Shown one piece after another: positions 20,121 to 38,097 of a stretch of 64,000 bases of DNA. The translations under genes were made by a program, and so were the position numbers. Origin of the DNA: a virus (lineage: Duplodnaviria > Caudoviricetes); the IMG/VR virus record IMGVR_UViG_3300036783_000180, positions 1-64,000 of that record; one strand, written 5' to 3'. Below the pieces are notes generated by a model that had not been told where the DNA came from, did no database searches, and was given only the letters and a program-made list of their open reading frames with translations. Numbering within the stretch: position 1 is the first letter of the stretch; every line of letters starts with the position of its first letter.

Positions 20121-21115
20121 TTAGTTATTTGTATTTCACAGATCCACATGCAAAAGGAAAATCTCCATCAACACGAACAGATGATTTTCCAGAAACAATT
20201 TTAAAGAAAATCGAAAAAGGTTTTGAAATCGGTCACGAAAACAACGTCGATTTCTTTATGTGTGGTGGAGATTTCTTAGATAGTGCTTATGTATCACCTA
20301 AGTTTGTAAGGAGATTAGGAAGACTTATCAAACGATGCTTACGAGGCAAGTTGTTATTCTTTGTTTGGGGAAATCATGATATTATCGCATGGAATCCTAA
20401 AACGGCAGAAGATACAGCATTCGGTTTATTTGAAGAGTTCTTTGACGATATGATTGAATTAACTCCGGAACCAAAGAAATACACATTTAACGGAGAAGAT
20501 ATTTATTTATCGGGTGTTCATGCATACGCTAACTTAGATAGACATATCTTAGATGACGAAGGAAATATCATAGAACATCGTTCTCGTGATTACGTAATAG
20601 AAGGAGATTATGATGCTCCTGTCATTCATACAGTTCACGGTTATTTATCACCTAAACCAATTCTAGAAGATATTCCGCATACTGTAATTGAAGAAATGAA
20701 ACATACAAAAGCGACTATTACACAAACAGGCCATGAACATACTGGATTCGCTCCAATTCAATTACCGTATGGTACAGTGGTTAATCCTGGTGCATTAGGA
20801 CGTGTATTTGCATCTCATACAGAAATGAACCGTATGCCGCAATACACATTAAATAAAGTATACGGAATTGGTAATGCAGAGGTTACCCTTATCCAATGTC
20901 CAATCGCTCTTAAAGGTGATTTGGTTATGGATAGAACCGCATTAGACGAGAAGAAAGCAAGACAAGAAATCTTGTTACAAGCGAAAACGAATATGAATGA
21001 AGCGTTAAAAGACATTAATATTCAATCAGTGGACTTACATGTGATTATGCAAAGATTCAAAGGGAAGATTGAAGACGATGTATATTCGGAAGCAAAACGA
21101 AGACTAGGGATGTAA
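20117..21115 (+). CDS. sbcD: SbcD/Mre11-like metallophosphoesterase nuclease
   Basis: Motifs TDPH, GGDFLD, GNHD, GHEH, NPGALGR. Confidence 0.9.
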   Translation: MISYLYFTDPHAKGKSPSTRTDDFPETILKKIEKGFEIGHENNVDFFMCGGDFLDSAYVSPKFVRRLGRLIKRCLRGKLLFFVWGNHDIIAWNPKTAEDTAFGLFEEFFDDMIELTPEPKKYTFNGEDIYLSGVHAYANLDRHILDDEGNIIEHRSRDYVIEGDYDAPVIHTVHGYLSPKPILEDIPHTVIEEMKHTKATITQTGHEHTGFAPIQLPYGTVVNPGALGRVFASHTEMNRMPQYTLNKVYGIGNAEVTLIQCPIALKGDLVMDRTALDEKKARQEILLQAKTNMNEALKDINIQSVDLHVIMQRFKGKIEDDVYSEAKRRLGM

Positions 21116-21149: not shown

Positions 21150-22175
21150 ATGGATAAAGAGATTATAGATTTTTACAGAATATTAGGAGTCAGTAAATCA
21201 GCGGATGAAAAAGAAATTAAGAAAGCTTACAGGGATTTAGCAAGGAAGTATCATCCTGACGTAAGCAAAGAAGAAAACGCAAAAGAGAAGTTCCAAGAAA
21301 TACAAGAAGCATATGAGGTGCTCGGTGATGAAGAATTAAGAGCAGAGTATGACGTTGCCCTGCAAAATCATGAAGAAATGTTAGAGAGAAAAAGAACTAA
21401 GTTCTCTGATGTTTTTCACTCTTTCTACAAAAAGGAAGCAGATAGAAGGCATCCAATAGATGGGAAAAATGTACATGTCACACTTCCATTTACGATAGAA
21501 GATTCTTACAAGCAAACGAAAAAGAAGTTCGAATACAATCGTTTCAGAAATTGTAAAGATTGCAGAGGTTATGGTTTCATATCTAAAAACAAAGTGAAGT
21601 GCGAACATTGTGTAGGTAAAGGTTCTAAGAAGAAAGAGTTGATCACGCCGTTCGGAACAGTTACAGCTTCCGAAGGATGCATTAAGTGTAATGGAACAAC
21701 TTACAAAGACCACGAAACTTGCGAATCTTGTTTAGGTACAGGTAAAGAAAAGAATATGGAAACACTGCAAATCGAAATACCTGAAGATGTATATCGTGGC
21801 AAACAGATGATACTAAGTGGTTGGGGTGAGTTAGGCATTCGTGGCGGAGAAGCTGGCAACTTAATCATTACATTCGAACATGATCCAACGGATGGTTACA
21901 AAATCGAATATGACTATGATGTTGTTAGGAGATTTTCTATTCCACTAAAAACAGCACTTTTAGGAGGTGATGTGAGAATAGCGAAACCAGATGGAGGGGA
22001 AGAAGTAGTAAAAATAACAAAAGCTACTTCAAACGGTGCTCGACTTGTCATAGGTAATATGGGATTATTAAATAAGAAAAATAATCAGAGAGGGATTTAT
22101 TACGCTGAAATAAACGTAGAAATGCCTACTGACTTAACACAATCCAACCTAAACAAGATTGGTGATTTATTATAG
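21150..22175 (+). CDS. dnaJ: DnaJ-family chaperone
   Basis: J domain with HPD (ARKYHPDV), four CxxCxGxG-type repeats and a DnaJ C-terminal domain. Confidence 0.92.
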
Positions 22176-22188
22176 GAGGGAACAAACA

Positions 22189-23472
22189 TTGGCAACTAAC
22201 GTCTACCTGGAGGGTGTGGAACTTTATAACTTCCGCACCCACTCCAAAACAAAAATGAAATTCACAAAAGATATAAATGCTTTAGTTGGCTCTAGTAGTG
22301 CTGGTAAAAGTAATGTTATGCGAGGAATCATTTGGAACATTAGAAATGAGCCTGCTGGTAATGACTTTATTAAAACAGGAACAATGGAAGCTAGCGTCAC
22401 TACACATTGGTCAAATGGATATTCTATCGAAAGAACAAGAAATAAAAGCGGAACAAAAAACGTATACATCGTTTATAAAGATGGTGAAGTAATTAATGAG
22501 TATACAGGTTTCGGAACTGGCGTACCACCTGAAGTTATCGATATACATGGTATTCGACCTTTAGCTAACGGTGTGTATTTCAACTACGCAAATCAACTCG
22601 AATCTGCTTTCTTAGTATCTGAGTCACCTAGAACAAGAGCTGAAGTAATCGGTAATTTAGAAGAACTAGGACGCATCGACGAAGAACTTACAAAAATCAA
22701 CGCTGATGTCAAAGCGGATAAGAAGCTACATAAAATGGTGTCAGCAGAGGTTGATGAATACAGTAAATCTATAGAAGAACTTGAGAAGCAGATTGCATTA
22801 AGAGAAAAGAAAGTAGAGGCTTTGAAAGAGTTTTGCGATGGAGTGGAAAAGCAAGAATCTATCCATCGAACACTTTCTAAGCATACCGAGCGACTTGCAG
22901 AATTATCAGATGAAGTGAACCGCACATCACAAGAAGTTATGAGAGCGAATAAAATCATCGAAAATTGGGATGATAATTTAGATGATAAAATAAGAACATA
23001 CCATAAACTTAACGGTCATGCAGAGCGACTAGGTAGCATTAAGGATGAAATGAACACTATATCATTCTTAAATGACGAAGCGTTAAGTCAACTCACTTCG
23101 TTATGTGAAAGTATAGAAGAGTCCATGAAGGTTGCTCAAATGTTTACGAGTCATATGAAACGACTAGAAAACATAGGAAGCTCCATTGACCGTATCAAAG
23201 CGCAAACGCCTTCCGAAAGGGTTATGAATATTAATTTCGAAGAACTGGATAAGGATATCGAACATTTCCGTTATATTCAAAAACACTTATCTCGTCTGCA
23301 AGATATAGATTCAGAGGTAACGAAAAACAAACAGACAATTTCAAGCGCAACAGACGAAATTGTAAATCTCGTAGATCACTTAGTACAGCATCTACATGAC
23401 GAAAAAGTATGTCCAACATGTACACAAACAACAGAAAAAATCACAACAGACCAAATCAAACAATTGGTATAA
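22189..23472 (+). CDS. sbcC: SbcC/Rad50 N-terminal part (Walker A, coiled coil, zinc hook)
   Basis: TTG start at 22189 after GGAGG. LYNFRTH, Walker A GSSSAGKS, Q-loop ANQLES, and the CPTC hook at the C-terminus. Confidence 0.85.
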   Translation: MATNVYLEGVELYNFRTHSKTKMKFTKDINALVGSSSAGKSNVMRGIIWNIRNEPAGNDFIKTGTMEASVTTHWSNGYSIERTRNKSGTKNVYIVYKDGEVINEYTGFGTGVPPEVIDIHGIRPLANGVYFNYANQLESAFLVSESPRTRAEVIGNLEELGRIDEELTKINADVKADKKLHKMVSAEVDEYSKSIEELEKQIALREKKVEALKEFCDGVEKQESIHRTLSKHTERLAELSDEVNRTSQEVMRANKIIENWDDNLDDKIRTYHKLNGHAERLGSIKDEMNTISFLNDEALSQLTSLCESIEESMKVAQMFTSHMKRLENIGSSIDRIKAQTPSERVMNINFEELDKDIEHFRYIQKHLSRLQDIDSEVTKNKQTISSATDEIVNLVDHLVQHLHDEKVCPTCTQTTEKITTDQIKQLV

Positions 23473-23489: not shown

Positions 23490-23741
23490 ATGGCTACAGA
23501 ATACTCAAGAATTAAACAAGCGGTAGATGCAGAGAAAGCAAAGAAAGTACGTGGAGAAGCTAACCTAGCATCATTACTATCTGAAGAAACTCGTATTTAT
23601 GAGGATATCGAACGTGAAACAGGAAAGAAAGTTAATTCAAAAGAAGAACTAGAAAGAATGAACGAAGAGGCTCAAAAAGAGATTTCTGATACAATCATGA
23701 AAATGAAAGACATCTTAGATGCAGAAGGAGTTGCATTCTAA
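23490..23741 (+). CDS. Small coiled-coil protein, probable middle piece of split SbcC
   Basis: 83 aa, helical and charged, lying between the two SbcC halves. Confidence 0.6.
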   Translation: MATEYSRIKQAVDAEKAKKVRGEANLASLLSEETRIYEDIERETGKKVNSKEELERMNEEAQKEISDTIMKMKDILDAEGVAF

Positions 23742-24394
23742 TGGATATCGATATTGCCTTTGCTTCACCGGTAGTTGTTCGTGCTGCTAAGAAAATGATT
23801 CAAGAGCACGAACAAGATATCCAAGAGTTAGACAGAATGAAAGCTGAATTAGCTAGGAAGATAAAACAAAGAGACGAAATCGAACCTAGAATCATTTTAT
23901 TAGAAAAGGTTCGTGTGTTTATGCAAACTCTAGCGGAAGAAACTCGCGACGAAATTATGTCAGGATTAGAACAGGTAGTTACCACTTGTCTTCAAATTGT
24001 ATTTGGGCCACACTTACGTTTTGAAATCGAAGTAGAAACAAAGCGTAATGCAACAGGTATTGAATTCTACATTGTAGATGAATCAGGTGAAAAACCAGTA
24101 CGTCTTAAACCAGAAGGTAACTTTGCTGGTGGAGAGTTAGATACTATCTCCATCGGTTTACGATTCGGATTGTTAAAAGTATTAAATCCTTCTCCAGAAG
24201 GACCTGTATTCCTTGATGAGCCAGCAAAAATGATTTCGGGCGATAGAGTATTCTCTATCGCTAACTTATTGAAAGAGTTAGCGAAAATGTTCGACAAACA
24301 GATTATCATGGTATCTCACCACGAAGCATTGATTGACGTAGTAGATAATTCGATTTACTTCAAGAAAGAAAATGGCGTAACACAATGTGTCTGA
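23741..24394 (+). CDS. sbcC: SbcC/Rad50 C-terminal ATPase part
   Basis: ABC signature variant FAGGE, Walker B VFLDEP, H-loop MVSHH. Confidence 0.88.
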   Translation: MDIDIAFASPVVVRAAKKMIQEHEQDIQELDRMKAELARKIKQRDEIEPRIILLEKVRVFMQTLAEETRDEIMSGLEQVVTTCLQIVFGPHLRFEIEVETKRNATGIEFYIVDESGEKPVRLKPEGNFAGGELDTISIGLRFGLLKVLNPSPEGPVFLDEPAKMISGDRVFSIANLLKELAKMFDKQIIMVSHHEALIDVVDNSIYFKKENGVTQCV

Positions 24395-25372: not shown

Positions 25373-25408
25373 ATAGCAGATACAATATTGTATCTGCTAT
25401 CATTTTTT
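25373..25408 (+). terminator. Perfect 28-bp palindrome plus T-tract
   Basis: ATAGCAGATACAAT|ATTGTATCTGCTAT then CATTTTTT. Confidence 0.7.
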
Positions 25409-25447: not shown

Positions 25448-26482
25448 ATGAAAAGAGTAGAAAGTTTATTATTTGATGTAGTTAAGGATAACATGGATGA
25501 TACATTACAAGGATTCTTTATTGATGGAGATAAAGGTGTAGCAATTGCAGGACATAGAAGGATTTACAATACTGGAGATTTACTTGTTCGTGCATTAGGC
25601 GATTTCGAAGTACCTGATAGAGTGAGACAAGAAACAGGTACAGCGTTTTATAGCTATCGTGAAAAGGTTATTTCTTTAGATGAAAAAGGAATACCAGGAC
25701 AACAAGTAGAAGGTGGAAGAATTATCGTAGATGCAGAAGAGGCAGATATCATCTTTGAAGAAGCGTACAAAGCAATCGGAGAAGGATTCATGGTTCTTTT
25801 AAACCCTAAAATAATTTGCAGTTTCATTGAGTCTTATACACAGTATCAAGGATTCCAAAATAAGAAAATCAATATGCAAGTATTTAATGGGATTTCTAAT
25901 GTAGGTCACTTCACTGGACAAATCCATACCCATCAAGAAACTGGCGAAATCGGTTTATTGGTTGGAGAACGGATTTTCTGTCATATCGATGCAAAGAACT
26001 CTTTATTGAATCCTCAAATTCTAAGAGAAGATGCATTCGTAGTTGCGGAAATATTAGGAGTAGTGGAAGGAAAAAGAATCGTTCGTATCCTTAGACCATT
26101 TGAAACAGGTGTTAGATTCGCAATCCAAGACTTTAGAAATGGATTAATGTTAGATGATGCTGCACCTTATTCAGTTCACGAAGAAAGAAATAACGGTATT
26201 ACTAAACAAGGTATCATGAACATGCCATTCCTAGAATATCAGTTTGATGCAGATGATCCAAATAGCCCGAACATGTTCTTAGATGCACCAATGTTACACT
26301 TTGACTTAGATTCTCTATATCGTGCATTAAAACCAATGGAAATGCATAGCGTTGTAGAAATGATTTTCAAAGATTCTATTTCGCCATCTATTATCAGAAC
26401 TGCAACGAAAGAAGATATTGAATTAGAAGCAGTGATTGGAACAACATCGCCTTACAGAAGAGGAAAGGTGTGGACTCCATGA
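25448..26482 (+). CDS. Divergent DNA sliding clamp (DnaN beta)-like protein A
   Basis: LQGFFIDGDKGVAIAGHRR resembles the beta-clamp L.Gv...vaTDGHRL motif. The C-terminus FDLDSLYRALKPM...VEMIFKDSISPSII...AVI resembles FN..YL.dal....V.l.f.....P. Ends RRGKVWTP. Confidence 0.5.
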   Translation: MKRVESLLFDVVKDNMDDTLQGFFIDGDKGVAIAGHRRIYNTGDLLVRALGDFEVPDRVRQETGTAFYSYREKVISLDEKGIPGQQVEGGRIIVDAEEADIIFEEAYKAIGEGFMVLLNPKIICSFIESYTQYQGFQNKKINMQVFNGISNVGHFTGQIHTHQETGEIGLLVGERIFCHIDAKNSLLNPQILREDAFVVAEILGVVEGKRIVRILRPFETGVRFAIQDFRNGLMLDDAAPYSVHEERNNGITKQGIMNMPFLEYQFDADDPNSPNMFLDAPMLHFDLDSLYRALKPMEMHSVVEMIFKDSISPSIIRTATKEDIELEAVIGTTSPYRRGKVWTP

Positions 26483-26835
26483 GTAATGAATTACAGGTTA
26501 ATATAAACGATATAAATCGCAAGCTCGGCGTAGACTTATCTAAAGTCTATGGCCGGGCTTGCATTTCTTATAATTCGTCTACCCGTAAATCTGCTGATTA
26601 CATACCTGATTTCGAAGTCCTGTATGAAGAATATTGTGATATGTACATCACAAAAATAACTGATGCAGGAGCAGTATTTGAAGAACTCAAACAATTGTCT
26701 ACCTCGAAAGGGGGTGATGATACGGAGGAAACAAGCGTAGGTAAAGCTGAGTTTCTGAATATTTTGTTTATGATGAACTACACTTTTTTCCTAGAAGGGC
26801 AATTGATGAACCCGATAATATTGGAGGTATGGTGA
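26479..26835 (+). CDS. VW-array paralogue 1
   Basis: ATGA overlap with clamp-like gene A. YIPDF; ends NPIILEVW*. Confidence 0.8.
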   Translation: MSNELQVNINDINRKLGVDLSKVYGRACISYNSSTRKSADYIPDFEVLYEEYCDMYITKITDAGAVFEELKQLSTSKGGDDTEETSVGKAEFLNILFMMNYTFFLEGQLMNPIILEVW

Positions 26836-26836
26836 C

Positions 26837-27205
26837 ATGCAGATTAACAGAGAATTATCAGCGCAAATAAGAGAAATAGTTCATGAGGAAAACTTGAAAC
26901 TGTTGATGGATATTTACAGATTTATGGCAATCAAAACGAAGATACATGTGCCGGACATTGCAGTTTTGCACAACATCTTTAAAGAGAAATGGATTGATAA
27001 GAATTACGAATTTCTAATTACAAATGCAGATGCTTACGAATTCGATTTGGAACAAATATCAAAACATAACCACATTGCTAAATTAGAAGAGGTTGGATTT
27101 ATTTTGTTAGAACTTGACGATGTAGAACGTATTTTTAATTCCTTAAATATATCATTCGTTAGAAATGGTGTCCTATGGAACTCGGCGGTGATTAGCGTAT
27201 GGTAA
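26837..27205 (+). CDS. VW-array paralogue 2
   Basis: HVPDI; ends NSAVISVW*. Confidence 0.8.
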   Translation: MQINRELSAQIREIVHEENLKLLMDIYRFMAIKTKIHVPDIAVLHNIFKEKWIDKNYEFLITNADAYEFDLEQISKHNHIAKLEEVGFILLELDDVERIFNSLNISFVRNGVLWNSAVISVW

Positions 27206-27597
27206 ATTATGACCTTAATATACAGAAAGAGGAAAGAAGCTCGAAGATTGAATTCGAGCTTCTTTCTGATATTTATAGAGAACTGAGTGGAATGTGCATA
27301 GTTCCAACATCAGATTTAATTTTTAATCATTATAATTTAGTTTTGGAATACCGGATAACCAAGTTACAGGAAGAGCTTTATCCTGATGATGTGTATGAAT
27401 CGGGATTATCGCTTGATAATAAACACGAATTACTTCCCGATTGTGTGAGGGCAGACTTACAAAGCTACATAAAGCTGGATTCTGTCACACTAGAAGAAAT
27501 AGAAGACGCTTTGAATTTTTACAACATATTCTTTATTAAAGAACACAGCGGGGAGAGGAAAACATTGGTCAATCAAATTGTACTAGAAGTTTGGTAA
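27199..27597 (+). CDS. VW-array paralogue 3
   Basis: IVPTS; ends NQIVLEVW*. Confidence 0.8.
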   Translation: MVNYDLNIQKEERSSKIEFELLSDIYRELSGMCIVPTSDLIFNHYNLVLEYRITKLQEELYPDDVYESGLSLDNKHELLPDCVRADLQSYIKLDSVTLEEIEDALNFYNIFFIKEHSGERKTLVNQIVLEVW

Positions 27598-27613
27598 AGG
27601 GGAGATAGGATTA

Positions 27614-28018
27614 ATGCTAGCGAACACAATTGTTGTTGAACACTCGGAGTTTTTATTTAAGGATATTCATATTTACATTTTTGAAGAATACGAGCGAATT
27701 TGGGATGAATATATCATGAATCAAATCCCTAGCGTTCCGTCCATCTACGAAATCGTGCATCGAGTTTCAGAAGTGATTCATAATAGAATTAGTGAATTAT
27801 TAAGCTCAAGATATGTATTAGGAAATGACCTTTTTAACGAAGATGATTTTCAACAATTGGTAGCACTATATTCTTCTTGGTTCGATCAGCAAGCAGATAG
27901 AAAAGCTTATTTAGATGAGGTCTTGTTACGAGAAGTCACTAAGTTCTTTTGCTTACACCAACTGTTCCACGAAAGAGACGGTGTATTAGTTAATCAACCT
28001 GTATTGGGGGTGTGGTGA
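27614..28018 (+). CDS. VW-array paralogue 4
   Basis: SVPSIYEI; ends NQPVLGVW*. Confidence 0.8.
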   Translation: MLANTIVVEHSEFLFKDIHIYIFEEYERIWDEYIMNQIPSVPSIYEIVHRVSEVIHNRISELLSSRYVLGNDLFNEDDFQQLVALYSSWFDQQADRKAYLDEVLLREVTKFFCLHQLFHERDGVLVNQPVLGVW

Positions 28019-28383
28019 TGTATGAAGTAACAAATCCATTAGATGTAATTAATGATTTAGCATACGCTTCTTTGTACGAAGCTTATTCGTTTATCTTTAC
28101 AGAGAACTGTTATAACCCAACCGTGATACCTTCACTCGAAATGATCCACAATCACTTTGTGGATCATTTTATTCAAGGGTTATTCTTAGATACTGTACAA
28201 AGGGATAACTACGAATCACTAGGAGCGGAAGACTTCTATGATTTTGAAAAAAAGATTAAAGGCAGAAAGTATCATCCTTTCATACCGGATATCGCTCAAC
28301 TTAGAATTATGTTAAATACAAGGAATATCACCTATATGATAGGCGACGTAGTTCACAATCCAGTCGTAAAGGGAGTGTGGTAA
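28018..28383 (+). CDS. VW-array paralogue 5
   Basis: TGATG coupling. MYEV, VIPSLEMI; ends NPVVKGVW*. Confidence 0.8.
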   Translation: MYEVTNPLDVINDLAYASLYEAYSFIFTENCYNPTVIPSLEMIHNHFVDHFIQGLFLDTVQRDNYESLGAEDFYDFEKKIKGRKYHPFIPDIAQLRIMLNTRNITYMIGDVVHNPVVKGVW

Positions 28384-28812
28384 ATGGATGAATTAATTAG
28401 AAGTAATTTAGAACAAAAATCAGCATTAGAAGAAACGGTAGAATTATTCTTATATGAAGCATACGAGTCTCTATCATCGTCGATATGTAGCGACTTTTAT
28501 AGTGGTTGGTATCCTTACATTTATATAGGGGATTTAGTGCAGCGTGTATATAGCGAAACGTATACAGAAGTGAAGATTGGATTAATCGATGAAGCTATTT
28601 TAAGAGGCGACCATGAATTAGCAGGTTTAGGAAGGGATGATTATACCTTACAAGCTTATCAAGGAACCTTATCGGATACAGCGCATTTAGAACCTAACTT
28701 CGGAAGAAAAGAGATAGAGGACATTATTTTAAAAGTATTAACACAAAAGAATATCGCGTACTTAGATTACGACGAGAAGATGCAAAACCCGATTATAAAG
28801 GAAGTGTGGTAA
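28384..28812 (+). CDS. VW-array paralogue 6
   Basis: Ends NPIIKEVW*. Confidence 0.8.
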   Translation: MDELIRSNLEQKSALEETVELFLYEAYESLSSSICSDFYSGWYPYIYIGDLVQRVYSETYTEVKIGLIDEAILRGDHELAGLGRDDYTLQAYQGTLSDTAHLEPNFGRKEIEDIILKVLTQKNIAYLDYDEKMQNPIIKEVW

Positions 28813-29276
28813 TGACCGGAGCAAACGAAATGATGGTATTAAAACCAGAAGACGTAGTGAACACAGTAGATTCAATGCTGTTAATTACAAAAGAGACATT
28901 TGATAAATTCATTGTGCTTTTAGCACATTGGTATAAAGAAGAATCGTTGCAGGAAAATAATATTCCTAACATCTTCTATATATTCCAAATGCGCGACCCA
29001 ATCATTGATGATTTATCTAGTATTTTTATAGAAAGTTTAGGGTGGAGAGAATTAGGAGAATTACAAATGTCTTACAATTTCGAACGGAATCCAGAAGACG
29101 AAGGTGTAATGAGGAATAAGTTTATACATGGATACGATAAGCTTTTCTTGAATCAAATGATACAGGATGTAGAAACAGCGTTTGAAGCAATGAGGTTTGT
29201 GTACAGATGGGATTCTACAGAATTCGGAGGTACAGACCAAATTATAAAAGGAAGCGTGGTATTAGGCGTATGGTAA
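28812..29276 (+). CDS. VW-array paralogue 7
   Basis: TAATG coupling. NIPNIFYI; ends GSVVLGVW*. Confidence 0.8.
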   Translation: MTGANEMMVLKPEDVVNTVDSMLLITKETFDKFIVLLAHWYKEESLQENNIPNIFYIFQMRDPIIDDLSSIFIESLGWRELGELQMSYNFERNPEDEGVMRNKFIHGYDKLFLNQMIQDVETAFEAMRFVYRWDSTEFGGTDQIIKGSVVLGVW

Positions 29277-29701
29277 ATGCATATGAATTATCGCAAGTAG
29301 AGGAAATAAATTATGATTTCATTAAACCGGGATTAGAAGATAGATTTGAGGTAGCGGTCATGCAGTGGTATTGCGATTTCTCAAGGTTTGTACCACATTT
29401 CATACCAACTATAACAGACGTTTTTGACGACACAATCCCTATTACTAGCATAGCTTCAGATATGGTCAGTATATTAAGTGAATGTGCAGCTATAGAATTT
29501 TGCGGAATTGATAAATTTCCAGAATCAATGAGTGATTGGACAAGCGACCATATTCTACGGTTTGAGGATGAGATTGATTTATATCAATATGAGCATGATT
29601 TTTATGCAGATGTAGAAAAGTTTTTAGTGGCTAAAAACATGACATATTGCAGAAGCGATGAATATAAACCGGAGGTAACATATGTGGTAGGAGTGTGGTG
29701 A
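29270..29701 (+). CDS. VW-array paralogue 8
   Basis: Start moved to MVNAYEL (29270). FIPTITDV; ends VTYVVGVW*. Confidence 0.8.
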   Translation: MVNAYELSQVEEINYDFIKPGLEDRFEVAVMQWYCDFSRFVPHFIPTITDVFDDTIPITSIASDMVSILSECAAIEFCGIDKFPESMSDWTSDHILRFEDEIDLYQYEHDFYADVEKFLVAKNMTYCRSDEYKPEVTYVVGVW

Positions 29702-29702
29702 T

Positions 29703-30146
29703 ATGTACGAAGTTGCGGTCAAAGATTACACATTGATGCCATTTAGAATTGTAGAAAAGACACCTGGTATCGTAGAGGAATTTTTGAGATTAGTATCTGA
29801 TTTGTATCACGATTTTTGTTTGTGCAGAGAAGGAATACCAACGTTAGAGGACTTGATGTATTTAGAGGAAGAATATTATCCACCAACAAATGAAACTGTT
29901 AACGGATTTCTAGATGGAATGATTTTAGAATTAATGCACAGACCGAATACATTTTTAGAAGATTTCCTAGTGGATCTACCTGAAGATGTAACAACGGATT
30001 CTGTAGCTGACTTTTTACATGGTTGTTGGGATGATATGAAGCCTTACTATGTAAACGAAATAAGAATAGCGTTAGATTTAATGCGATTTTCTTATAGAGA
30101 CGAGTGGGGCGAAGTAAGAAATTCACATGTAATAGAGGTGTGGTGA
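29703..30146 (+). CDS. VW-array paralogue 9
   Basis: MYEV, GIPTLEDL; ends NSHVIEVW*. Confidence 0.8.
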   Translation: MYEVAVKDYTLMPFRIVEKTPGIVEEFLRLVSDLYHDFCLCREGIPTLEDLMYLEEEYYPPTNETVNGFLDGMILELMHRPNTFLEDFLVDLPEDVTTDSVADFLHGCWDDMKPYYVNEIRIALDLMRFSYRDEWGEVRNSHVIEVW

Positions 30147-30147
30147 A

Positions 30148-30522
30148 ATGTACGAATTAGAAAGAAGAGAAGTTGAATTTAAATTTGTGCCGGAGGAATT
30201 TTATAGCACATTTAAAGCATCGGTAAAGAGTTGGTATGATGGCTTCTGTTATAGTTTCCCGAACAGAATACCAGAAGCTCGATTAGTAAGTTTGGAACAT
30301 CCAATTGGTTTTGAGTTTGAAAGTAGTTTAATTTGGTTTGCAGGAGCGATAATAGAAACACTAGATCCGAATGGAGATTTAGAATACGCTACAGCTTATG
30401 AACTTAGCGTAATGGAAAGAATTTTGTTTGAAGAAGATATACGAACACTATTAGATGCAGAAAACATGGTTTATCTGCTTGATGGAAAAGTACAGAATGC
30501 GATTATTTTGGAGGTATGGTGA
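30148..30522 (+). CDS. VW-array paralogue 10
   Basis: MYEL, RIPE; ends NAIILEVW*. Confidence 0.8.
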   Translation: MYELERREVEFKFVPEEFYSTFKASVKSWYDGFCYSFPNRIPEARLVSLEHPIGFEFESSLIWFAGAIIETLDPNGDLEYATAYELSVMERILFEEDIRTLLDAENMVYLLDGKVQNAIILEVW

Positions 30523-30524
30523 CG

Positions 30525-31067
30525 ATGACTACAGGACAATTAACTACAGAAAGCGTAAAACATGACTTTAAATTCTTTTGTGCAGAGTTATATACAGCGC
30601 AAGAATTAACAGAAGAATTCAGAACGATTTATACATCTATTGTATTAGAAACGGGTCATGTACCTAATCTATTTGATATCAGAATGCATGCTTCTAATTT
30701 AATGCAGCGAGCATTCATCGAAAGAATCGCTTTAGGAAAAGAAGATTTATTAGATGACTATGCATATGGAGAAGGCATAGTCGCACATATACAAGACATT
30801 GTAAGAGAGTACAGACCAGAAGAGTTCTCTCATGGTATCTTCAGATGCATACAAGAGTACCCGACGTTATATCCGAATGACGATTGGGCAGAGCCATTCT
30901 TAGAGGATGCATTGTACATCTTCAATATAAATCAATGGAGATACCATAATATAGAGTGTTATCCAGCTTACAACTTCATGTTGTTATCAGACGAACGCGC
31001 TGACATCTTAGGCAGTCAAGGTAAAAAGGAATTCGATATTAACAATCCTGTCTTGGAGGTATGGTGA
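30525..31067 (+). CDS. VW-array paralogue 11
   Basis: Start 30525 by SD spacing (30516 also possible). HVPNLFDI; ends NNPVLEVW*. Confidence 0.8.
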   Translation: MTTGQLTTESVKHDFKFFCAELYTAQELTEEFRTIYTSIVLETGHVPNLFDIRMHASNLMQRAFIERIALGKEDLLDDYAYGEGIVAHIQDIVREYRPEEFSHGIFRCIQEYPTLYPNDDWAEPFLEDALYIFNINQWRYHNIECYPAYNFMLLSDERADILGSQGKKEFDINNPVLEVW

Positions 31068-31068
31068 T

Positions 31069-31560
31069 ATGAATGCATACGAACTTCAAACGAGTGAATA
31101 TTTTGATGGTCCATATGATTTCTTTCACCACACATTGCAAACCCCACAAGAAATGAAGGATATTTTGTTTGAAAATTATAGATTCTCATGCGAAACAGGT
31201 TGGGTAGAAGGGGTTGCATCGAATGAAATGCCAACGTTATTTGATATTGGAAGTCGTTTTGCCGAAATGTTCGTAAGAGAAAAAACATTACAAGCTTACG
31301 AAACCAACGGTGTCGTCGGAGAAATAGATGTCAGAGAGAATATTGATAAACACGACGGTGATTTAATCGAAGAGGTAGAAACAGATATTCTTTCGGAATT
31401 CGATAATCTTATGAGTTTCGGAGTGTACACAGCGTATTCAGGAGAATTAGGACTTTTCATCGGAGACATAGAGCGTATGTTAAATGCATACAATCTAACT
31501 TACATAAAAGAAACATTAGAAGGAACAACAGCGAATACGTATGTAGTAGGAGTGTGGTAA
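31069..31560 (+). CDS. VW-array paralogue 12
   Basis: MNAYEL, EMPTLFDI; ends NTYVVGVW*. Confidence 0.8.
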   Translation: MNAYELQTSEYFDGPYDFFHHTLQTPQEMKDILFENYRFSCETGWVEGVASNEMPTLFDIGSRFAEMFVREKTLQAYETNGVVGEIDVRENIDKHDGDLIEEVETDILSEFDNLMSFGVYTAYSGELGLFIGDIERMLNAYNLTYIKETLEGTTANTYVVGVW

Positions 31561-31562
31561 GC

Positions 31563-32024
31563 ATGTATCAACTGGAACAATCAAAAGAGGAAATAGGACT
31601 GAAATTCATACCAAAAGAAAGGCAAAAAGATTTTATAAAAGAGGTATTAGACACTTACAAATGCACGTATCATATTGTAGATAAATTAGGAGGGGATAAA
31701 AACTTTCACTACGTAGACCCTTGGGCTGACATAGGCGTGTTCTTAGGAGAACTTTTCCTAATCGGATGTTGTTATAGGGATTTCGGACACAACTTAGCTT
31801 ACGAAGATAGAGTGCAAGAATTAGCAAGTGAAGGTTTAGATCCGATGCAAGAGTTAAGGGAATGGTACGAAAGTGTCGATAGCGATTATCATGATAAATT
31901 CGTTGAAGACATTATGATAGTTCTGAATCATCATCAATATTCATACTTCGACCCAACAGATAACCCTTACAATGACACAGGCGTTGTAGTCATTCACAAT
32001 AATTATTGCGTTGAAGTTTGGTAA
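31563..32024 (+). CDS. VW-array paralogue 13
   Basis: MYQL; ends NNYCVEVW*. Confidence 0.8.
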   Translation: MYQLEQSKEEIGLKFIPKERQKDFIKEVLDTYKCTYHIVDKLGGDKNFHYVDPWADIGVFLGELFLIGCCYRDFGHNLAYEDRVQELASEGLDPMQELREWYESVDSDYHDKFVEDIMIVLNHHQYSYFDPTDNPYNDTGVVVIHNNYCVEVW

Positions 32025-32041
32025 ATAAAGGAGAATGTAAA

Positions 32042-32518
32042 ATGGAAATGGAAGCAACAGGCTTATACGGATTACAATTAGAAACGGAAGCGCCATACAG
32101 ATTATTATATGTAATGGGCGACGAAGAATTAAAACAAGTAATGAGAGATGTGTACTTAGCAACTTGCACTGCAATAAAGCCACCTTTATTTAAAAGGATT
32201 TTATCTGAAGTTATGATGAATGGAGTTCTTGTTTATGTATTCGCAGAACACGCAAAACGCTCCCCCGAACGTTTTGGACTAGAACAACGAACTGCTGATA
32301 TGTTTCATGCAGATGTAATGAGTTTCGGTATGGGCGAAAACAGTGAGTTCTTAGAATTTGCACTTTCTCATGTATCCGATTACTTCTTAGGAGAGTTCGA
32401 AAGCGACATAGAAATATTTATGAACATACAGAACTACAGCTACTTAGTAGAAGATAGAGTTAATATTCATTCATCTGAGGAAACTATCAGAAATCCACCT
32501 GTTATCGGGGTTTGGTAA
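32042..32518 (+). CDS. VW-array paralogue 14
   Basis: Start 32042 (AAGGAG). IKPPLF; ends NPPVIGVW*. Confidence 0.8.
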   Translation: MEMEATGLYGLQLETEAPYRLLYVMGDEELKQVMRDVYLATCTAIKPPLFKRILSEVMMNGVLVYVFAEHAKRSPERFGLEQRTADMFHADVMSFGMGENSEFLEFALSHVSDYFLGEFESDIEIFMNIQNYSYLVEDRVNIHSSEETIRNPPVIGVW

Positions 32519-32557: not shown

Positions 32558-33358
32558 ATGGTGTTGGCGTTAAGTTCATTGAAGACACAGCAGTTAGTAA
32601 AACGATTTGACGTAGCCAAGCTCTTAGAAAGTTCTTTGGACATGTCATATTGGAAGGGGGATGATTGCACAAAAGGAGTGTTTTTTACAGATGAATATGG
32701 TTACTCACTCAACAAGGTAGTTGCTATTAGAGTAAATCATCATGAAGCTGCACCAGAAGTTTTTTATTCTTTTAATGAAAGTGAGGAAGAGGAAGGTGGT
32801 ACCGTGATAACAACGTATCCTTATAAAGATTTAGCACTACTTCCAAGAAAGCATCATTTGTTATTTAACGAGGAAAGGATTGAGAAGAACAATTTGGACA
32901 AAGTGTTCGAAAGAAAGGAGATATTAAAATCAATTAGTATAAAACCAAATGAGGTTGCCGAGACGATTGAAAAACAATTTCCAAACAAACGTCAGAGAGA
33001 TCGGACTCAATTGGTTATGAGTGTTAAGGATGATGAATTGTTACTTGAAGCAACCAAGAAAAAGAAAGTTACTTTTTCGGAAATCGTGAAGTATGATACA
33101 ATTACATCGCAAGACATTATTGAACTACAACAACCTACTTACGATTTGAGTCATTGGAAAACAGATAAAAAATCCAATGAAATAAAAGGAGCGATTAATG
33201 CTCATACTTTATGTTACTTGCTTCATGTGTTTCGAAGTTTCAATTCTGTTATCTTTCATTTTGAAGAGGATAGAATTTTTATGGTAAGCAACCCTACAGA
33301 CACAAAAACAGAAGTTGCACCTACTATCGAAGTTGTTGTAAGTTTAATGAAGAGTTAA
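32558..33358 (+). CDS. Divergent sliding clamp-like protein B
   Basis: TKGVFFTDEYGYSLNKVVAIRV and the C-terminal AINAHTLCYLLHVF....VIFHF...IFM...IEVVVSLM resemble beta-clamp domains II/III. Lies directly upstream of the primase-helicase. Confidence 0.4.
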   Translation: MVLALSSLKTQQLVKRFDVAKLLESSLDMSYWKGDDCTKGVFFTDEYGYSLNKVVAIRVNHHEAAPEVFYSFNESEEEEGGTVITTYPYKDLALLPRKHHLLFNEERIEKNNLDKVFERKEILKSISIKPNEVAETIEKQFPNKRQRDRTQLVMSVKDDELLLEATKKKKVTFSEIVKYDTITSQDIIELQQPTYDLSHWKTDKKSNEIKGAINAHTLCYLLHVFRSFNSVIFHFEEDRIFMVSNPTDTKTEVAPTIEVVVSLMKS

Positions 33359-33384: not shown

Positions 33385-36300
33385 TTGAGTTGGTATAAGA
33401 AGGTTAACAAATACATCGATGAAAATTTGCTAGATTTCATCAAGGAGTTTTACGGGGATAACGGTTGTGATACACAAAAAATTTCAAGAGCAATTCGTGT
33501 TAATCCTTGTCCTAGTTGCGGTCATAAGGATTGTTTCTCTTTCGCAACTGAAATGAATGCCTTCAACTGTTTCTCTTGTGAAGTCAGCGGCAACAGGATT
33601 AATTCATTATCAATTATTTTAAATTTATCGGATGAAGAAATAAGAAAGAGGATTTTTGACTGGTCTGGAATTGATTATGTACCTAACCAAGTTCATGACC
33701 AACAGGTTCAAAAAGAGCGCGAACACAATAGTAGGATTAAACTAATCCATGATACAGCATTACAATTGTTCTCGTATATGTTGAAGAACAACCAAGAATC
33801 AAAAGCACTTTATCATCAAACAGGAATAAGAAAGCATCAGGTTGAATACTTAGAAAAATACCATGTAGGTTATTCCGTTGATAATCGCATCTTAAGGAAT
33901 GGATTAGAAAAGTCACCGCATAATTTCACAGAAGAAGAAATTAAAGAAGGCTTGAAATTAGTAGGTGTACCAGAAGGATACTTTGTATATCCTTACTTCG
34001 ATAAGACGGGTAATCTAATTCGTGTTAATACAAAATTACATGAACGAATTTGTATGGGCAACCAACGTAATGATGGTAGTTTCGAATTCAATTGTGGATA
34101 CAGAACAACTGATTTATCTGCAAAAGCAATAGAAGATCATAAGGCTAGACCGTCAAATAAAAATCACGTACTGAGTTCGGATGGTTTTTCTCGTGGTGAA
34201 AAGACAGAAGCTTTCTACTATGCAAAAGGAAAATTGAAACGACAAAAGTTCGCTATACTTCTTGAAGGTGAGAACGATGTTATTTCGGTGGACGAAGCAC
34301 TAGGATGTTTACCTAAGCAATATCAACGCGACTTCATACCAATAGGTCTAGGTGGTCGAATGGATGAAGCTAGTTTCGATGGTTTATTCCTAAGACAATT
34401 CGATGCTATTTACGAATGTTTTGACCATGATGAAGCAGGCGACAAATACAGAGAATTGTTAGACGAAAAATTACCTGACATTCCTGTATACTCCATTAAA
34501 TTCGATGAAGATTACAACGACATCGATGCGTACTTAAAGTCCGGTGTAGTAGCGGATGGATTAAAAGATGCAATCGACAACGCTGAGTACAGAGAAACAC
34601 ATCACTTCATTATCAATCGTGATACAAAATCTCACAAATGGAGTTTGGTGAACAGAAAGTACGAAATTGTTTTCGATATAAATAGATACAATCACAAGAA
34701 AGGATTCCCTGAAGGAACGATTTCTGTAAATAAAGGTGGGCAACCAGTTTTCGAAAAAGATGGAGACTTAGCTTCAGCTAGATTGGATAACTATCTGAAT
34801 ACACCTAAGCTTCTATTCGTTCGAAAACTGAAAGAGTATTACCAAAGTGTAGAAATGACATCCAATGGACCACAAAGAAGTTTCGAAGAATTGATAGATA
34901 TCTATCCGTACACTGCAAAGAAAAACACAGTAGTTAAACATTTGTCTATTTACTTAGCAAATAAAGACGAAAAAGATTTCGAGATAGCAGTTAAACGTTT
35001 AGCAAAACTAGGCAGCAAAGTACGAAGCCAAGTTCTGCAAGAAGTCAATTCTTCAAGGTCTGACGACATAAAGAATCCTAATCAGATTCCTGAAGTTACG
35101 TTGTCTCAATTCTTCAGTGTCCAAAATGATGATGCTTTCTTTTACTTCACAAAGTTCTTAAAAGACGATGAGGAAGACACGAACGAAACAAAGAAGCTTC
35201 CATTTCTTCTTACAAATAAGAAAGAAGAAATCAGATTGGATTTAATCAAACGGAAAACACCACAAAGTGTATTACTCGTGAAAAAGAAATACCAATTACC
35301 TAGTGAGGTACCGACAGCCATCATGGACCCGGATGGAGCTTCTTTACAACAGGAATGGGCTGAAAAGTGGAGGCTAGGGCAATTAGATCCTGAAGAGTAC
35401 GCACCATCAAAGTTGATACAAGAAATAGAAGAGTTCGTTAACCGATGTTACTACCTAGAACCAGATACAGTAAAAGTTCTGTCTCTATGGATTTATGCAA
35501 CGTACTTCTATACGATATTCAAAGCAGGATTCCCTTACTTATTAATCACAGGTGAAAAGGGAACAGGTAAAACGACTGCCGATATGTTGATTTACCTACT
35601 ATCATTAAACGCAAAATTAGCATTACAAATGTCAGAGTCAGCGTTATTCCGTGCTATTAGTCAACAGGGCGGAACATTTATCCTGGATGAAATTGAGAAT
35701 TTAAATGATAAGAAAAACGTTGATAATAATGCAATGGCAACAATTCTAAAGGGTGGTTATTCCGATACAGGTAAAATCTATAGAACAAATATGGATCAAG
35801 GTTCTGGTGGTAATGTAGAAGGATTCTCTGCTTTTGGACCGAAGGTTATTTCAAACATCAATGGTTTGGATGAGGTTATTGGTGACCGTTGTATTTTCAT
35901 TAAAACGATTCGTGCACCTGAAAGTAAGATTCAAGATTTAGAAGATGTTCAGTTTTATAGAGATGGAACAGGTCTTGAGGAAGTAAAAGCCATCACTTCT
36001 AAATGTGTGATATCAGCATTAACTTACTTCAAAGAGGTGTACGATCTTTACTATAATCCGCGTTCTAAGATTTCGACAGGTAACGCACGTTTATCGCAAA
36101 TCGTTAAACCGTTAATGACTATGGCGCAATTTGTAGGTGAAGAGTACGAAGAGGCTTTAATGCGATTCTATAAAAATGAAATTTCTCCAGTCAAAGAAGA
36201 ATTATCCGTTTCTTCTCTAGAGGGTATGGTTAAACATTTAATCAAAACAGTTGCATTGGAATTATCTGGTGTAACTACAACTAAGTGGGCAACACAACAT

Positions 36301-36648
36301 CACGAAAGTATGTATCCCACACCTATCGACTACGACGAGAAAAGTGGAATATTCAGCATGGATATTATGCACTTCTTCACTTTAGCTGAAGCTTCTAATA
36401 ACGATACACCAGTTGAACTGAATGCACTACGCAAAACGATTAAACAAACGTTTAAGAATCAAGCTGAGTACATGGCTAGGACAACGAAGAGAAGCGTAGG
36501 TATTGTGGACGAAGGCTTGCAAAGACGTTTAAATGGAAAGAAGCGTATGTTAGTAGACGTAATTTCATTCAACGTAAATGATTACTTAACTGATGCAGAA
36601 AAAGAAACGATGAATCCAAACAGAGTTCCAGAAAAATCACTATTCTAA
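33385..36648 (+). CDS. Primase-helicase fusion (Zn finger + TOPRIM + P-loop ATPase)
   Basis: CPSCGH..CF...CFSC zinc finger. TOPRIM LLEGEND...CFDHDEAG. Walker A GEKGTGKT, Walker B FILDEIE. Confidence 0.85.
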   Translation: MSWYKKVNKYIDENLLDFIKEFYGDNGCDTQKISRAIRVNPCPSCGHKDCFSFATEMNAFNCFSCEVSGNRINSLSIILNLSDEEIRKRIFDWSGIDYVPNQVHDQQVQKEREHNSRIKLIHDTALQLFSYMLKNNQESKALYHQTGIRKHQVEYLEKYHVGYSVDNRILRNGLEKSPHNFTEEEIKEGLKLVGVPEGYFVYPYFDKTGNLIRVNTKLHERICMGNQRNDGSFEFNCGYRTTDLSAKAIEDHKARPSNKNHVLSSDGFSRGEKTEAFYYAKGKLKRQKFAILLEGENDVISVDEALGCLPKQYQRDFIPIGLGGRMDEASFDGLFLRQFDAIYECFDHDEAGDKYRELLDEKLPDIPVYSIKFDEDYNDIDAYLKSGVVADGLKDAIDNAEYRETHHFIINRDTKSHKWSLVNRKYEIVFDINRYNHKKGFPEGTISVNKGGQPVFEKDGDLASARLDNYLNTPKLLFVRKLKEYYQSVEMTSNGPQRSFEELIDIYPYTAKKNTVVKHLSIYLANKDEKDFEIAVKRLAKLGSKVRSQVLQEVNSSRSDDIKNPNQIPEVTLSQFFSVQNDDAFFYFTKFLKDDEEDTNETKKLPFLLTNKKEEIRLDLIKRKTPQSVLLVKKKYQLPSEVPTAIMDPDGASLQQEWAEKWRLGQLDPEEYAPSKLIQEIEEFVNRCYYLEPDTVKVLSLWIYATYFYTIFKAGFPYLLITGEKGTGKTTADMLIYLLSLNAKLALQMSESALFRAISQQGGTFILDEIENLNDKKNVDNNAMATILKGGYSDTGKIYRTNMDQGSGGNVEGFSAFGPKVISNINGLDEVIGDRCIFIKTIRAPESKIQDLEDVQFYRDGTGLEEVKAITSKCVISALTYFKEVYDLYYNPRSKISTGNARLSQIVKPLMTMAQFVGEEYEEALMRFYKNEISPVKEELSVSSLEGMVKHLIKTVALELSGVTTTKWATQHHESMYPTPIDYDEKSGIFSMDIMHFFTLAEASNNDTPVELNALRKTIKQTFKNQAEYMARTTKRSVGIVDEGLQRRLNGKKRMLVDVISFNVNDYLTDAEKETMNPNRVPEKSLF

Positions 36649-37308: not shown

Positions 37309-38097
37309 ATGATGAAAAACTTTGCAATTATGACACCTTTCAAATTGAACTGGAAGTATGTAGTTCCTTATGACTTTGAAAGACTGCAATACTTTGTTAC
37401 GCCACGAGTATCTATTTTATTTGATAGAATCACAAACGGAAAACGAAACTTCTTTTTAGGTTCATTTTTAGCCGGAGGAAATAGAGACAAATTCGCAAAT
37501 GAATTTATGCCACAGTTATCTAAAGAGCGTATTGATATGGCTTTTGAAACAGATACCATTTCAGCGTTCTTAACACAAGAGGATGCAGAAAGTTGCCAAG
37601 CTCTTTTTGATGAAGAACAATTCTTTTGCTTCCGCGTTACTTTGCTTTTAGATGGAGCGGAAACGGATCTAAGAGCATTGCCGGAAGAAGATTATTATAA
37701 AGCGTTAGAAATTCTATCAACAGAATTAAAAGTGGTAACGATTATGGATTTAGAAGCACAAGAAGAAACTCTTGCCGATATGTATAGAGAGACAAGAGAA
37801 GAAGTTGAAAAAGGAATGCTGAATGAAGCAAGAAAGAAAGAAGAAACAATTACAGACGGTGAACAATCTGGAAAGATAGCAATACTAAAAGGTGCTTTAG
37901 GTGCATTAGCTACCACTGCAAGTGTATATTGTGCGGCAACTACCAAAAGGATGATTAGACGAGGCGGTAAGGCAGGTATAGCAATCGGAAGTATTTGCAG
38001 TGTACTTAGTTTCGGATTCTCACTAGTAGGTCGGAGTTTAATGAAAACATCAATTAACCATTTCAAAAAAGGGAAGGTAGGATTCATCAATGTCTAA
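37309..38097 (+). CDS. Membrane-anchored hypothetical protein
   Basis: 262 aa, two C-terminal hydrophobic segments. Confidence 0.65.
   Translation: MMKNFAIMTPFKLNWKYVVPYDFERLQYFVTPRVSILFDRITNGKRNFFLGSFLAGGNRDKFANEFMPQLSKERIDMAFETDTISAFLTQEDAESCQALFDEEQFFCFRVTLLLDGAETDLRALPEEDYYKALEILSTELKVVTIMDLEAQEETLADMYRETREEVEKGMLNEARKKEETITDGEQSGKIAILKGALGALATTASVYCAATTKRMIRRGGKAGIAIGSICSVLSFGFSLVGRSLMKTSINHFKKGKVGFINV

Follow-up and report, generated by a model that had tools for sequence, protein, structure and literature searches.

A tandem array of fourteen genes ending in Val-Trp

The DNA analysed here, which we call the window, is the first 64 kb (positions 1 to 64,000) of the 175,348-bp IMG/VR virus record IMGVR_UViG_3300036783_000180 (Duplodnaviria; Caudoviricetes), which CheckV rates as complete. 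It contains a tandem array of 14 genes at 26479-32518, all on the plus strand, and the product of every one of them ends in Val-Trp directly before the stop codon. An earlier note, made from the letters of the window, had pointed out these 14 consecutive open reading frames (ORFs), which lie within 26470-32518; our reading confirms them, and the last eight residues of each product are identical to those listed then. The gene ends read GT[A/G/T] TGG T[A/G]A, with TAA or TGA as the stop, and the variation of the Val codon between GTA, GTG and GTT that had been reported is confirmed as well. Six of the listed ORFs ran upstream into the preceding gene; their starts were moved downstream and chosen by reading the junctions. 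After this correction the products are 118-183 amino acids (aa) long. All 14 are acidic (isoelectric point (pI) 4.1-5.3) and rich in aromatic residues (F+Y+W 10.6-16.1%). Among the 596 ORFs of at least 50 aa in the whole genome, 15 end in VW and 14 of these 15 form the array. The fifteenth (106911-107234, minus strand) encodes a basic protein that the hidden Markov models (HMMs) of the family do not match, and it was rejected as lying outside the family.

The array opens with member 1 (26479..26835, 118 aa, ending NPIILEVW), whose start overlaps the 3' end of a gene for a 344-aa protein, followed by member 2 (26837..27205, 122 aa, NSAVISVW) and member 3 (27199..27597, 132 aa, NQIVLEVW). Member 3 finishes with the codons GAA GTT TGG TAA, and the gene after it, 16 nt downstream, has a Shine-Dalgarno sequence of its own. 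This is member 4 (27614..28018, 134 aa, NQPVLGVW), and its TGA is overlapped by the ATG of member 5 (28018..28383, 121 aa, NPVVKGVW). Member 6 (28384..28812, 142 aa, NPIIKEVW) and member 7 (28812..29276, 154 aa, GSVVLGVW) come next, and member 8 (29270..29701, 143 aa, VTYVVGVW) starts at the ATG within the GT-ATG-GTAA of member 7. Then follow member 9 (29703..30146, 147 aa, NSHVIEVW), member 10 (30148..30522, 124 aa, NAIILEVW), which was used for the structure model, and member 11 (30516, or 30525, to 31067, 183 aa, NNPVLEVW), the most divergent of the set, with an insertion ahead of the tail. Member 12 (31069..31560, 163 aa, NTYVVGVW) precedes member 13 (31563..32024, 153 aa, NNYCVEVW), which again closes with GAA GTT TGG TAA and is followed by a gene with its own Shine-Dalgarno sequence. 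Member 14 (32042..32518, 158 aa, NPPVIGVW) is the last, and its stop is uncoupled, the next start lying 39 nt downstream.

An inverted repeat of 14-15 bp with a 7-nt loop lies at 27231-27267 (called on both strands), in the 5' part of gene 3. It is terminator-like by scan, has a poor T tail and is the only terminator-like hairpin inside the array; it could be a site of RNA processing or attenuation.

The proteins form one undescribed family

Pairwise BLAST among the members gives weak matches that are mostly C-terminal. HMMs built from 13 members at a time nevertheless recover the omitted member in 13 of the 14 cases, with E-values from 4e-5 (member 1) to 6e-13 (member 10), among them 7e-7 for member 2 and 1e-12 for member 12, and they match nothing outside the array among the ORFs of the genome. 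Member 11 is borderline in this test (E 0.09) with an alignment that runs end-to-end, and its orthologues in relatives are detected by the family profile. An alignment of 79 sequences has a common skeleton: a Tyr in helix 1, an I/V-P motif, a D-I-x3-L helix, a hairpin Tyr and the tail. In this alignment W124 never varies, and the conservation of Y30, P42 and V123 is 90% or more. The proposal that the genes are diverged paralogues of one family with a shared skeleton thus finds good support.

No named family had been recognised for these proteins, and the databases agree. Searches of Pfam, PHROGs and NCBIfam gave nothing above chance for any of the 14 proteins, and the family profile of 79 sequences had no match above chance among the PDB sequences. 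Feature comparison of member 12 in the ESM Atlas led only to unnamed clusters (0.80-0.82). Neither a megablast search with the array nor a tblastn search with the primase encoded downstream of it gave a match in 50,697 cultured-phage records. A profile search of 1.84 billion representative proteins did retrieve 73 relatives at E<=1e-3; all of them align to the end of the profile and to their own last residue, and all finish in [VI]-W. The protein family is therefore undescribed, and every member of it that we looked up sits in a tandem array.

Longer relatives of 322-2000 aa in which the family might be fused to another protein were sought with the family alignment and none was found, which is weak evidence. 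A single case surfaced by reading a neighbouring gene and not from that search. An ABC-F type ATPase (ABC_tran_Xtn and ABC_tran; L028:3-1058, plus strand, on a 1.6-kb contig of ENA ERZ25021423, and also in L029) ends in NFPVLPIW. Its last ~70 residues align weakly (8 bits) to the C-terminal module of the Val-Trp family, and its stop overlaps the start of a genuine family member directly downstream. This case hints, weakly, that the C-terminal module may be portable.

Protein and nucleotide constraints on the ending

The composition of the tail was determined from 121 distinct sequences, obtained by pooling the 73 profile hits with the arrays that we fetched. The consensus is N-x-P-[VI]-x-x-[VI]-W-COOH. 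Counting back from the C-terminus, position -1 is Trp in 121/121 sequences, and position -2 is Val in 112 (93%) and Ile in the remaining 9 (7%). Of the 121, 115 (95%) have V, I or L at position -5; position -6 is Pro in 59%, and position -8 is Asn in 105 (87%) and Gln in 2. An aliphatic residue (I/L/V) is also frequent at position -10 (86/121, 71%). Beyond the terminal Trp there is no residue in any of the 121 sequences.

Since the ending lies so close to the start of the next gene, its conservation could reflect the DNA as well as the protein. We tabulated 65 gene junctions from seven loci. Most junctions of the window read GGAGGT-N-TGG-TRA followed by ATG within 0-2 nt, and the codons for the residues E/G-V are here the Shine-Dalgarno sequence of the following gene. 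In the coupled junctions (43/65), in which the next start overlaps the stop or lies at most 4 nt away, the codon at -3 is GAG (20 cases), GGA (6), GGG (3), AAG or AGG, and the GGAGGT-like Shine-Dalgarno sequence sits 7-10 nt before the next ATG. The ATG inside GT-ATG-GTAA is used as a start in 12 of the 65. The other 22 junctions are uncoupled: either the following gene is served by a separate Shine-Dalgarno sequence beyond the stop, or no gene is coupled to the end at all. The codon at -3 is then GAA, AAT, TCG, TCC, CCC or others. The L024 lineage has S, N or D as residue -3 and often Ile (ATT/ATA) in place of Val, and there the Shine-Dalgarno sequence follows the stop.

All 65 junctions, including the 22 uncoupled ones, keep [VI]-W-stop. 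Its retention where the Shine-Dalgarno sequence lies after the stop argues for selection on the protein and against an effect of junction architecture. The earlier claim that the ending is selected at least partly at the protein level therefore has to be divided. It stands for [VI]-W, which the uncoupled junctions keep, and it fails for the residue before the Val, E or G in the window. By the sequence comparison, that residue owes its identity largely to the Shine-Dalgarno sequence which the next gene has embedded there, and not to the protein. By the same comparison, the [VI]-W end and the upstream N-x-P-[VI] are held by protein-level selection. Moreover, the stop is kept directly after the Trp where the junction gives no reason for it. 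The exact place at which the protein ends thus seems to be under constraint, which suggests that this place is important and that the free carboxylate probably is too.

The array is an old and ordered set

Complete or nearly complete arrays were obtained from six genomes or contigs; five of them carry 14 copies and the sixth carries 11. The five are the window itself, a contig of SRR11835592 whose gene sizes are almost identical to those of the window, IMG/VR 3300036802_000112, and the relatives L009 and L027; the array of 11 copies belongs to L024, the most distant lineage. Reciprocal best hits between the window and L009 give 11 pairs, and those between the window and L027 give 9 pairs. All pairs are collinear, for which the probability by chance is, by our own arithmetic, about 1/11! 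and 1/9!, respectively. Members 1 and 2 have their reciprocal best hits at the same position in both relatives. Further along, member 7 pairs with member 8 of L009 (82 bits), and member 11 pairs with member 12 of L009 and member 10 of L027. There is also some turnover: member 4 of L009 has no partner in the window, window member 12 has none in L009, and members 12 and 13 of L027 both match window member 13.

Orthologues are 20-39% identical where the flanking proteins share 38-45%. This identity is spread along the full length of the proteins (0.22-0.39 per decile) and amounts to 22-33% in the middle. Paralogues share only 9-15% in the middle, where the value per decile falls to 0.09-0.10, and reach 0.35 only in the last decile. 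The array thus reads as an old, ordered set in which each position has its own conserved body and the tail is common to all. It had been proposed that the proteins present a hypervariable surface on one fold and might serve as a library of interchangeable parts. This does not fit the comparison with relatives, as the middles are conserved between orthologues and orthology holds position by position where the flanks are only 38-45% identical.

Predicted structure of the Val-Trp proteins

An AlphaFold2 (AF2) model of member 10, computed with the 79-sequence alignment, has a mean predicted local distance difference test (pLDDT) of 88 and a predicted template modelling score (pTM) of 0.80. It contains helices at residues 16-36, 55-72 and 88-104, followed by a beta-hairpin with strands at 109-111 and 114-116, and the eight-residue tail is without regular secondary structure. 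Together with the leave-one-out paralogy and the family-wide tail, the model supports the earlier suggestion of one predicted fold with a constant C-terminal peptide.

Structure searches with this model returned only weak matches. The best hits had E 1.1 in the PDB and E 1.2 in BFVD by Foldseek, a template modelling (TM) score of at most 0.43 in the ESM Atlas, and Z 4.9 by VIA-align over 48,161 chains (best Z 3.4 in a second look). The order of elements (helix, short strand, helix, helix, beta-hairpin) resembles that of winged-helix domains, and rows for MukE (Z 3.4), JetB (Z 4.6) and BrxA (TM 0.41) were present, all in the chance range. However, the helices of the Val-Trp model are much longer than those of a canonical winged helix, and the Val-Trp proteins are acidic. 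These matches assign the Val-Trp proteins to no known fold, and the fold, like the family, is undescribed.

Genes around the array

The array is flanked on both sides by genes that accompany it in relatives. The upstream flanking protein (25448..26482, plus strand; 344 aa, pI 5.0) belongs to no known family. Five homologues of it were found, and a homologue of 334-389 aa (26-88% identity) directly precedes the array in every relative with that end visible. The only link of this protein to clamp families is a weak feature lead in the Atlas (0.78-0.79); a profile search against the PDB gave chance hits only, and comparison with the alignment of the downstream 266-aa protein by hhalign gave a probability of 1%. 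Just upstream of this gene, a consensus scan alone gives a weak call of a terminator-like hairpin (25373..25400, plus strand) with a 12-bp stem and a T run, which likely marks the 5' limit of the transcription unit to which the array belongs.

The downstream flanking protein (32558..33358, plus strand; 266 aa) shows a two-domain sliding-clamp fold in its predicted model, and all relatives examined have a homologue of it (235-267 aa) after the array. The AF2 model has a mean pLDDT of 54, with 75-87 in the C-terminal half, and DSSP assigns two beta-alpha-beta-beta-beta units to residues 122-262. When this model was compared with the 48,161 chains by VIA-align, the top 41 rows were all clamps (Z 7.8-12.6), after which the score drops to Z 4. 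These rows include bacterial beta, PCNA, 9-1-1, herpesvirus processivity factors and T4 gp45; their alignments cover 110-192 residues, most of them from residues 4-21 to 262-266, and hence both domains. Foldseek gave 249 matches at E<=1e-3, all clamps among the matches listed. A sequence-profile search against the PDB gave chance hits only. A search with the clamp alignment found one relative in IMG/VR and none in the JGI metagenome contigs. As judged from the model, the 266-aa neighbour has a sliding-clamp fold, and the description of this protein as clamp-like in the earlier note is borne out.

The clamp-fold gene is followed by a gene for a primase-helicase-like protein (33385..36648, plus strand; 1087 aa) with a CHC2 zinc finger, a Toprim domain and the P-loop GEKGTGKT. 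In relatives, the primase-helicase always comes after the clamp-fold gene, and the order of ~340-aa protein, array, clamp and primase is conserved in every relative with visible ends. The clamp-fold gene is probably co-transcribed with the array and the primase-helicase.

The array is part of a plus-strand operon for recombination and replication. Further upstream in it lie genes for a Mre11-like phosphoesterase (20117-21115), for a full-length type I DnaJ (21150-22175) with J domain, CXXCXGXG zinc finger and C-terminal domain, which is conserved in relatives, and for a split SbcC/Rad50-like ATPase. The N-terminal half of the latter is encoded at 22159-23472 and the C-terminal half at 23741-24394. 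An ORF of 83 aa (23490-23741) lies between the two halves, and the same split is found in relatives. Small genes without a family match sit between SbcC/Rad50 and the 344-aa gene. Beyond the primase, two plus-strand genes (37309-39076) encode proteins of 262 and 328 aa without a family match. Both finish in hydrophobic, glycine-rich segments that resemble membrane anchors, a feature that one would not expect within a replication operon. They are followed by a gene for a UvsW-like helicase (39375-41372, plus strand), which shares about 28% identity with its counterparts in Bacillus and Staphylococcus Herelleviridae.

Three further genes lie outside the window. A bacterial-type single-stranded DNA-binding protein (SSB) is encoded at 74190-74735 (minus strand; PF00436, E 4e-41). 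A long linker of NQG repeats, rich in Gly, Asn and Gln, leads to the canonical tip DDDLPF, which suggests that the phage SSB uses host SSB-interacting proteins. The similarity of the UvsW-like helicase, the GGAGG ribosome-binding sites and the DDDLPF tip together point to a host in the Bacillota. The genome also encodes an RtcB RNA ligase (110302-111489, minus strand; PF01139, E 1e-66) and a fused beta-beta' RNA polymerase in a single ORF of 2244 aa (167927-174661, minus strand; L019:3930-10661), in which the beta domains (Rpb2_3, _45, _6, _7) are followed by the beta' domains (Rpb1_1 to _5).

A possible docking function of the common tail

An invariant free tail, bodies that are conserved between orthologues and a fixed linkage to a clamp-fold gene are together suggestive of a shared plug carried by specific bodies. 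A tail common to all paralogues with a middle conserved only between orthologues is what would be expected of such an arrangement. Tentatively, we propose that the 14 paralogues are adaptors that dock by their free C-terminal peptide on a common hub, possibly the neighbouring clamp; we consider this quite possible, though still short of probable. The common tail, with its terminal Trp and free carboxylate, would insert into one receptor pocket on the hub, and each paralogue-specific body would hold a different partner, so that many factors could be gathered on one platform. A leading candidate for the hub would be the 266-aa protein with the sliding-clamp fold encoded directly after the array. 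Alternative hubs might be the 344-aa upstream protein or the beta clamp of the host. Three points are inferred from these patterns: that docking occurs in trans, which protein is the hub, and that the array proteins act as adaptors. A complex prediction of the 266-aa protein with member 10 scored 0.00 in two runs made with no controls, and it counts neither way.

Sliding clamps are hubs for short, hydrophobic peptides that are often C-terminal. In phage T4, gp43, gp55 and gp33, the last a protein of 112 aa, carry interchangeable C-terminal clamp-binding epitopes (PMC2988020). As with these proteins of T4 and RB69, several proteins of one phage end here in a short hydrophobic peptide, and gp33 is small, as the array proteins are. 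However, there are clear differences. The T4 peptide docks on the phage's own clamp, whereas the array adjoins a clamp-fold gene and binding is proposed. T4 has three different proteins and the array 14 paralogues of one fold, and the Val-Trp tail has no sequence similarity to the T4 epitope. The latter is hydrophobic and acidic, while in the array the hydrophobic tail stands at the exact C-terminus and the E at -3 varies between lineages with the Shine-Dalgarno sequence. Furthermore, unlike in T4, a clamp loader and a phage DNA polymerase were not detected in the genome that carries the array.

Other clamp-binding peptides follow the PIP-box, Qxx[I/L]xxFF, or the bacterial beta-clamp motif, QL(S/D)LF (PMC9690074). 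These motifs are often C-terminal, as the array tail is, and serve many proteins at one hydrophobic pocket, under the interdomain connecting loop of the clamp; for the tail, a single pocket is proposed. Positions 1, 4, 7 and 8 of the Val-Trp tail match their spacing (amide, aliphatic, hydrophobic, aromatic), and the aliphatic residue at position 4 is present in 115/121 tails. However, the motif has Gln at position 1, where the tail has Asn in 87% and Gln in 2/121, and it ends in two aromatic residues, where the tail has one, the Trp. The tail is also strictly bound to the free C-terminus and commonly has Pro at position 3. By sequence, the Val-Trp tail does not belong to the PIP-box or beta-clamp motif classes. 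The tip of SSB (DDD-[IL]-P-F-COOH) is a further parallel. It has a terminal aromatic residue, as the Val-Trp tail does, its free carboxylate may be recognised, and one peptide serves many replication and repair interactions. The logic would be reversed here, for the SSB tip belongs to a single protein and is bound by many partners. The Val-Trp tail has neither an acidic run nor a long disordered linker. The idea that it mimics the SSB tip was rejected, since the phage's own SSB ends in DDDLPF and the tail lacks the acidic run. The principle of many proteins with one C-terminal peptide for a hub is, in any case, already known.

Several observations weigh against docking on the neighbouring clamp. 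In the monomer model of member 10 the tail is predicted with a pLDDT of 93 (residues 111-120) and 78 (residues 121-124), and the hairpin runs straight into it with no flexible linker, so the tail may pack onto its own domain. The tail departs from the clamp-binding motifs in having Asn instead of Gln at position 1 and Val-Trp instead of two aromatic residues at positions 7-8. As for the hub, the clamp model has low confidence in its N-terminal half (pLDDT about 30), and the 344-aa protein adjoins the array just as the clamp does. Six-frame Pfam searches of the genome found no DNA polymerase of family A, B or C, and neither the clamp-loader domain PF13177 nor AAA PF00004. The DNA polymerase is either too divergent to be detected or that of the host is used, and the 266-aa protein may not be a conventional replicative clamp. 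Finally, we know of no precedent for fourteen separate adaptors to one hub.

Alternative explanations

The paralogues might instead be subunits of one ordered hetero-oligomer, a ring or a filament in which each tail enters the groove of a neighbour, head to tail, or takes part in strand exchange, and which works with the clamp and the primase. We regard this as unlikely, although several features would suit it. The array has 14 copies in five genomes, the gene order is conserved (reciprocal best hits run monotonically in 11 and 9 pairs), the sequence at every position is conserved in its own right, and the 43/65 junctions that overlap or leave a gap of at most 4 nt favour a fixed stoichiometry. 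AF2 is, moreover, confident on the tail and on the N-terminal segment despite their lack of secondary structure. However, the copy number varies, with 11 in one lineage, and turnover occurs within the 14-copy arrays as well (L009 member 4, window member 12, L027 members 12/13). Phage operons commonly show conserved order and translational coupling, so that neither feature is specific to complexes.

It also seems doubtful, to a similar degree, that the tail is an intramolecular cap. In that case the Trp would lie in the protein's own core near the helix-1 Tyr and the I/V-P motif, and the proteins would be independent effectors, with only a scaffold in common, acting in host takeover or anti-defence or as DNA mimics. 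The tail pLDDT of 78-93 was obtained with no partner present, and the near-invariant Y30 and P42 could form a pocket for the Trp. In their small size and acidity (pI 4.1-5.3) the proteins also resemble many phage inhibitors, and a few rows of small anti-CRISPR and Aca folds appeared in the structure comparison (Z 2.5-3.7, in the chance range). A structural C-terminal residue, however, normally tolerates short extensions, and 0/121 sequences are extended. Positional orthology and an evolutionary rate like that of the neighbours are unlike an arms-race family, and the array lies inside the replication operon and not in an early or accessory region. In addition, the family had no match in Pfam, PHROGs, NCBIfam or the PDB sequences, including the anti-restriction and anti-defence families that those libraries hold.

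Hydrophobic C-terminal residues with a free carboxylate are classic signals for proteases and chaperones. The peptide could accordingly be a tag, read by the phage DnaJ encoded 4 kb upstream or by host Clp or Lon, that times turnover or leads to the degradation of bound targets. The conservation in relatives of a full-length DnaJ in the same operon would agree with this. We nevertheless consider a tag improbable, as we found nothing that specifically resembles a known degron, DnaJ is several genes away with terminator-like hairpins between, and degrons seldom need eight conserved positions.

That the ending is a nucleotide-level by-product, with GAGGTNTGGTRA kept as Shine-Dalgarno sequence, stop and sometimes ATG for the next gene, would account for E/G (or K/R/G) at -3, where GAG, GGA, GGG, AAG or AGG builds the Shine-Dalgarno sequence in coupled junctions, and for the 12/65 junctions that start inside GT-ATG-GTAA, but for the Val-Trp itself the junctions largely refute it and leave it barely credible, as [VI]-W-stop is kept in 22/22 uncoupled junctions and in the last gene of each array, which has no coupled gene, the Ile codons ATT/ATA of one lineage destroy the Shine-Dalgarno-like GGT, and conservation reaches -8, past any need of ribosome binding.

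Implications

The junctions of the array offer a clean natural case in which a Shine-Dalgarno sequence within coding DNA dictates residue -3 while the adjoining residues are kept by protein function. If the tail does dock on a common hub, the array would be the largest known set in a single genome with a common C-terminal hub-binding signal, and its tail, with the pocket that receives it on a phage clamp or another hub, would be a new peptide-pocket pair. A bolder version, to which we give only a small chance, is that about 14 adaptors rewire host or phage machines onto a phage sliding platform through Val-Trp-COOH, or that the proteins build an ordered tail-to-body hetero-oligomer of a new fold. 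If this were true, the adaptor set would be a genetically encoded modular tool-belt of unprecedented size. The array could also reveal how replication, and perhaps transcription, is organised around a phage's own clamp-like protein when the phage is large and has no recognisable DNA polymerase.

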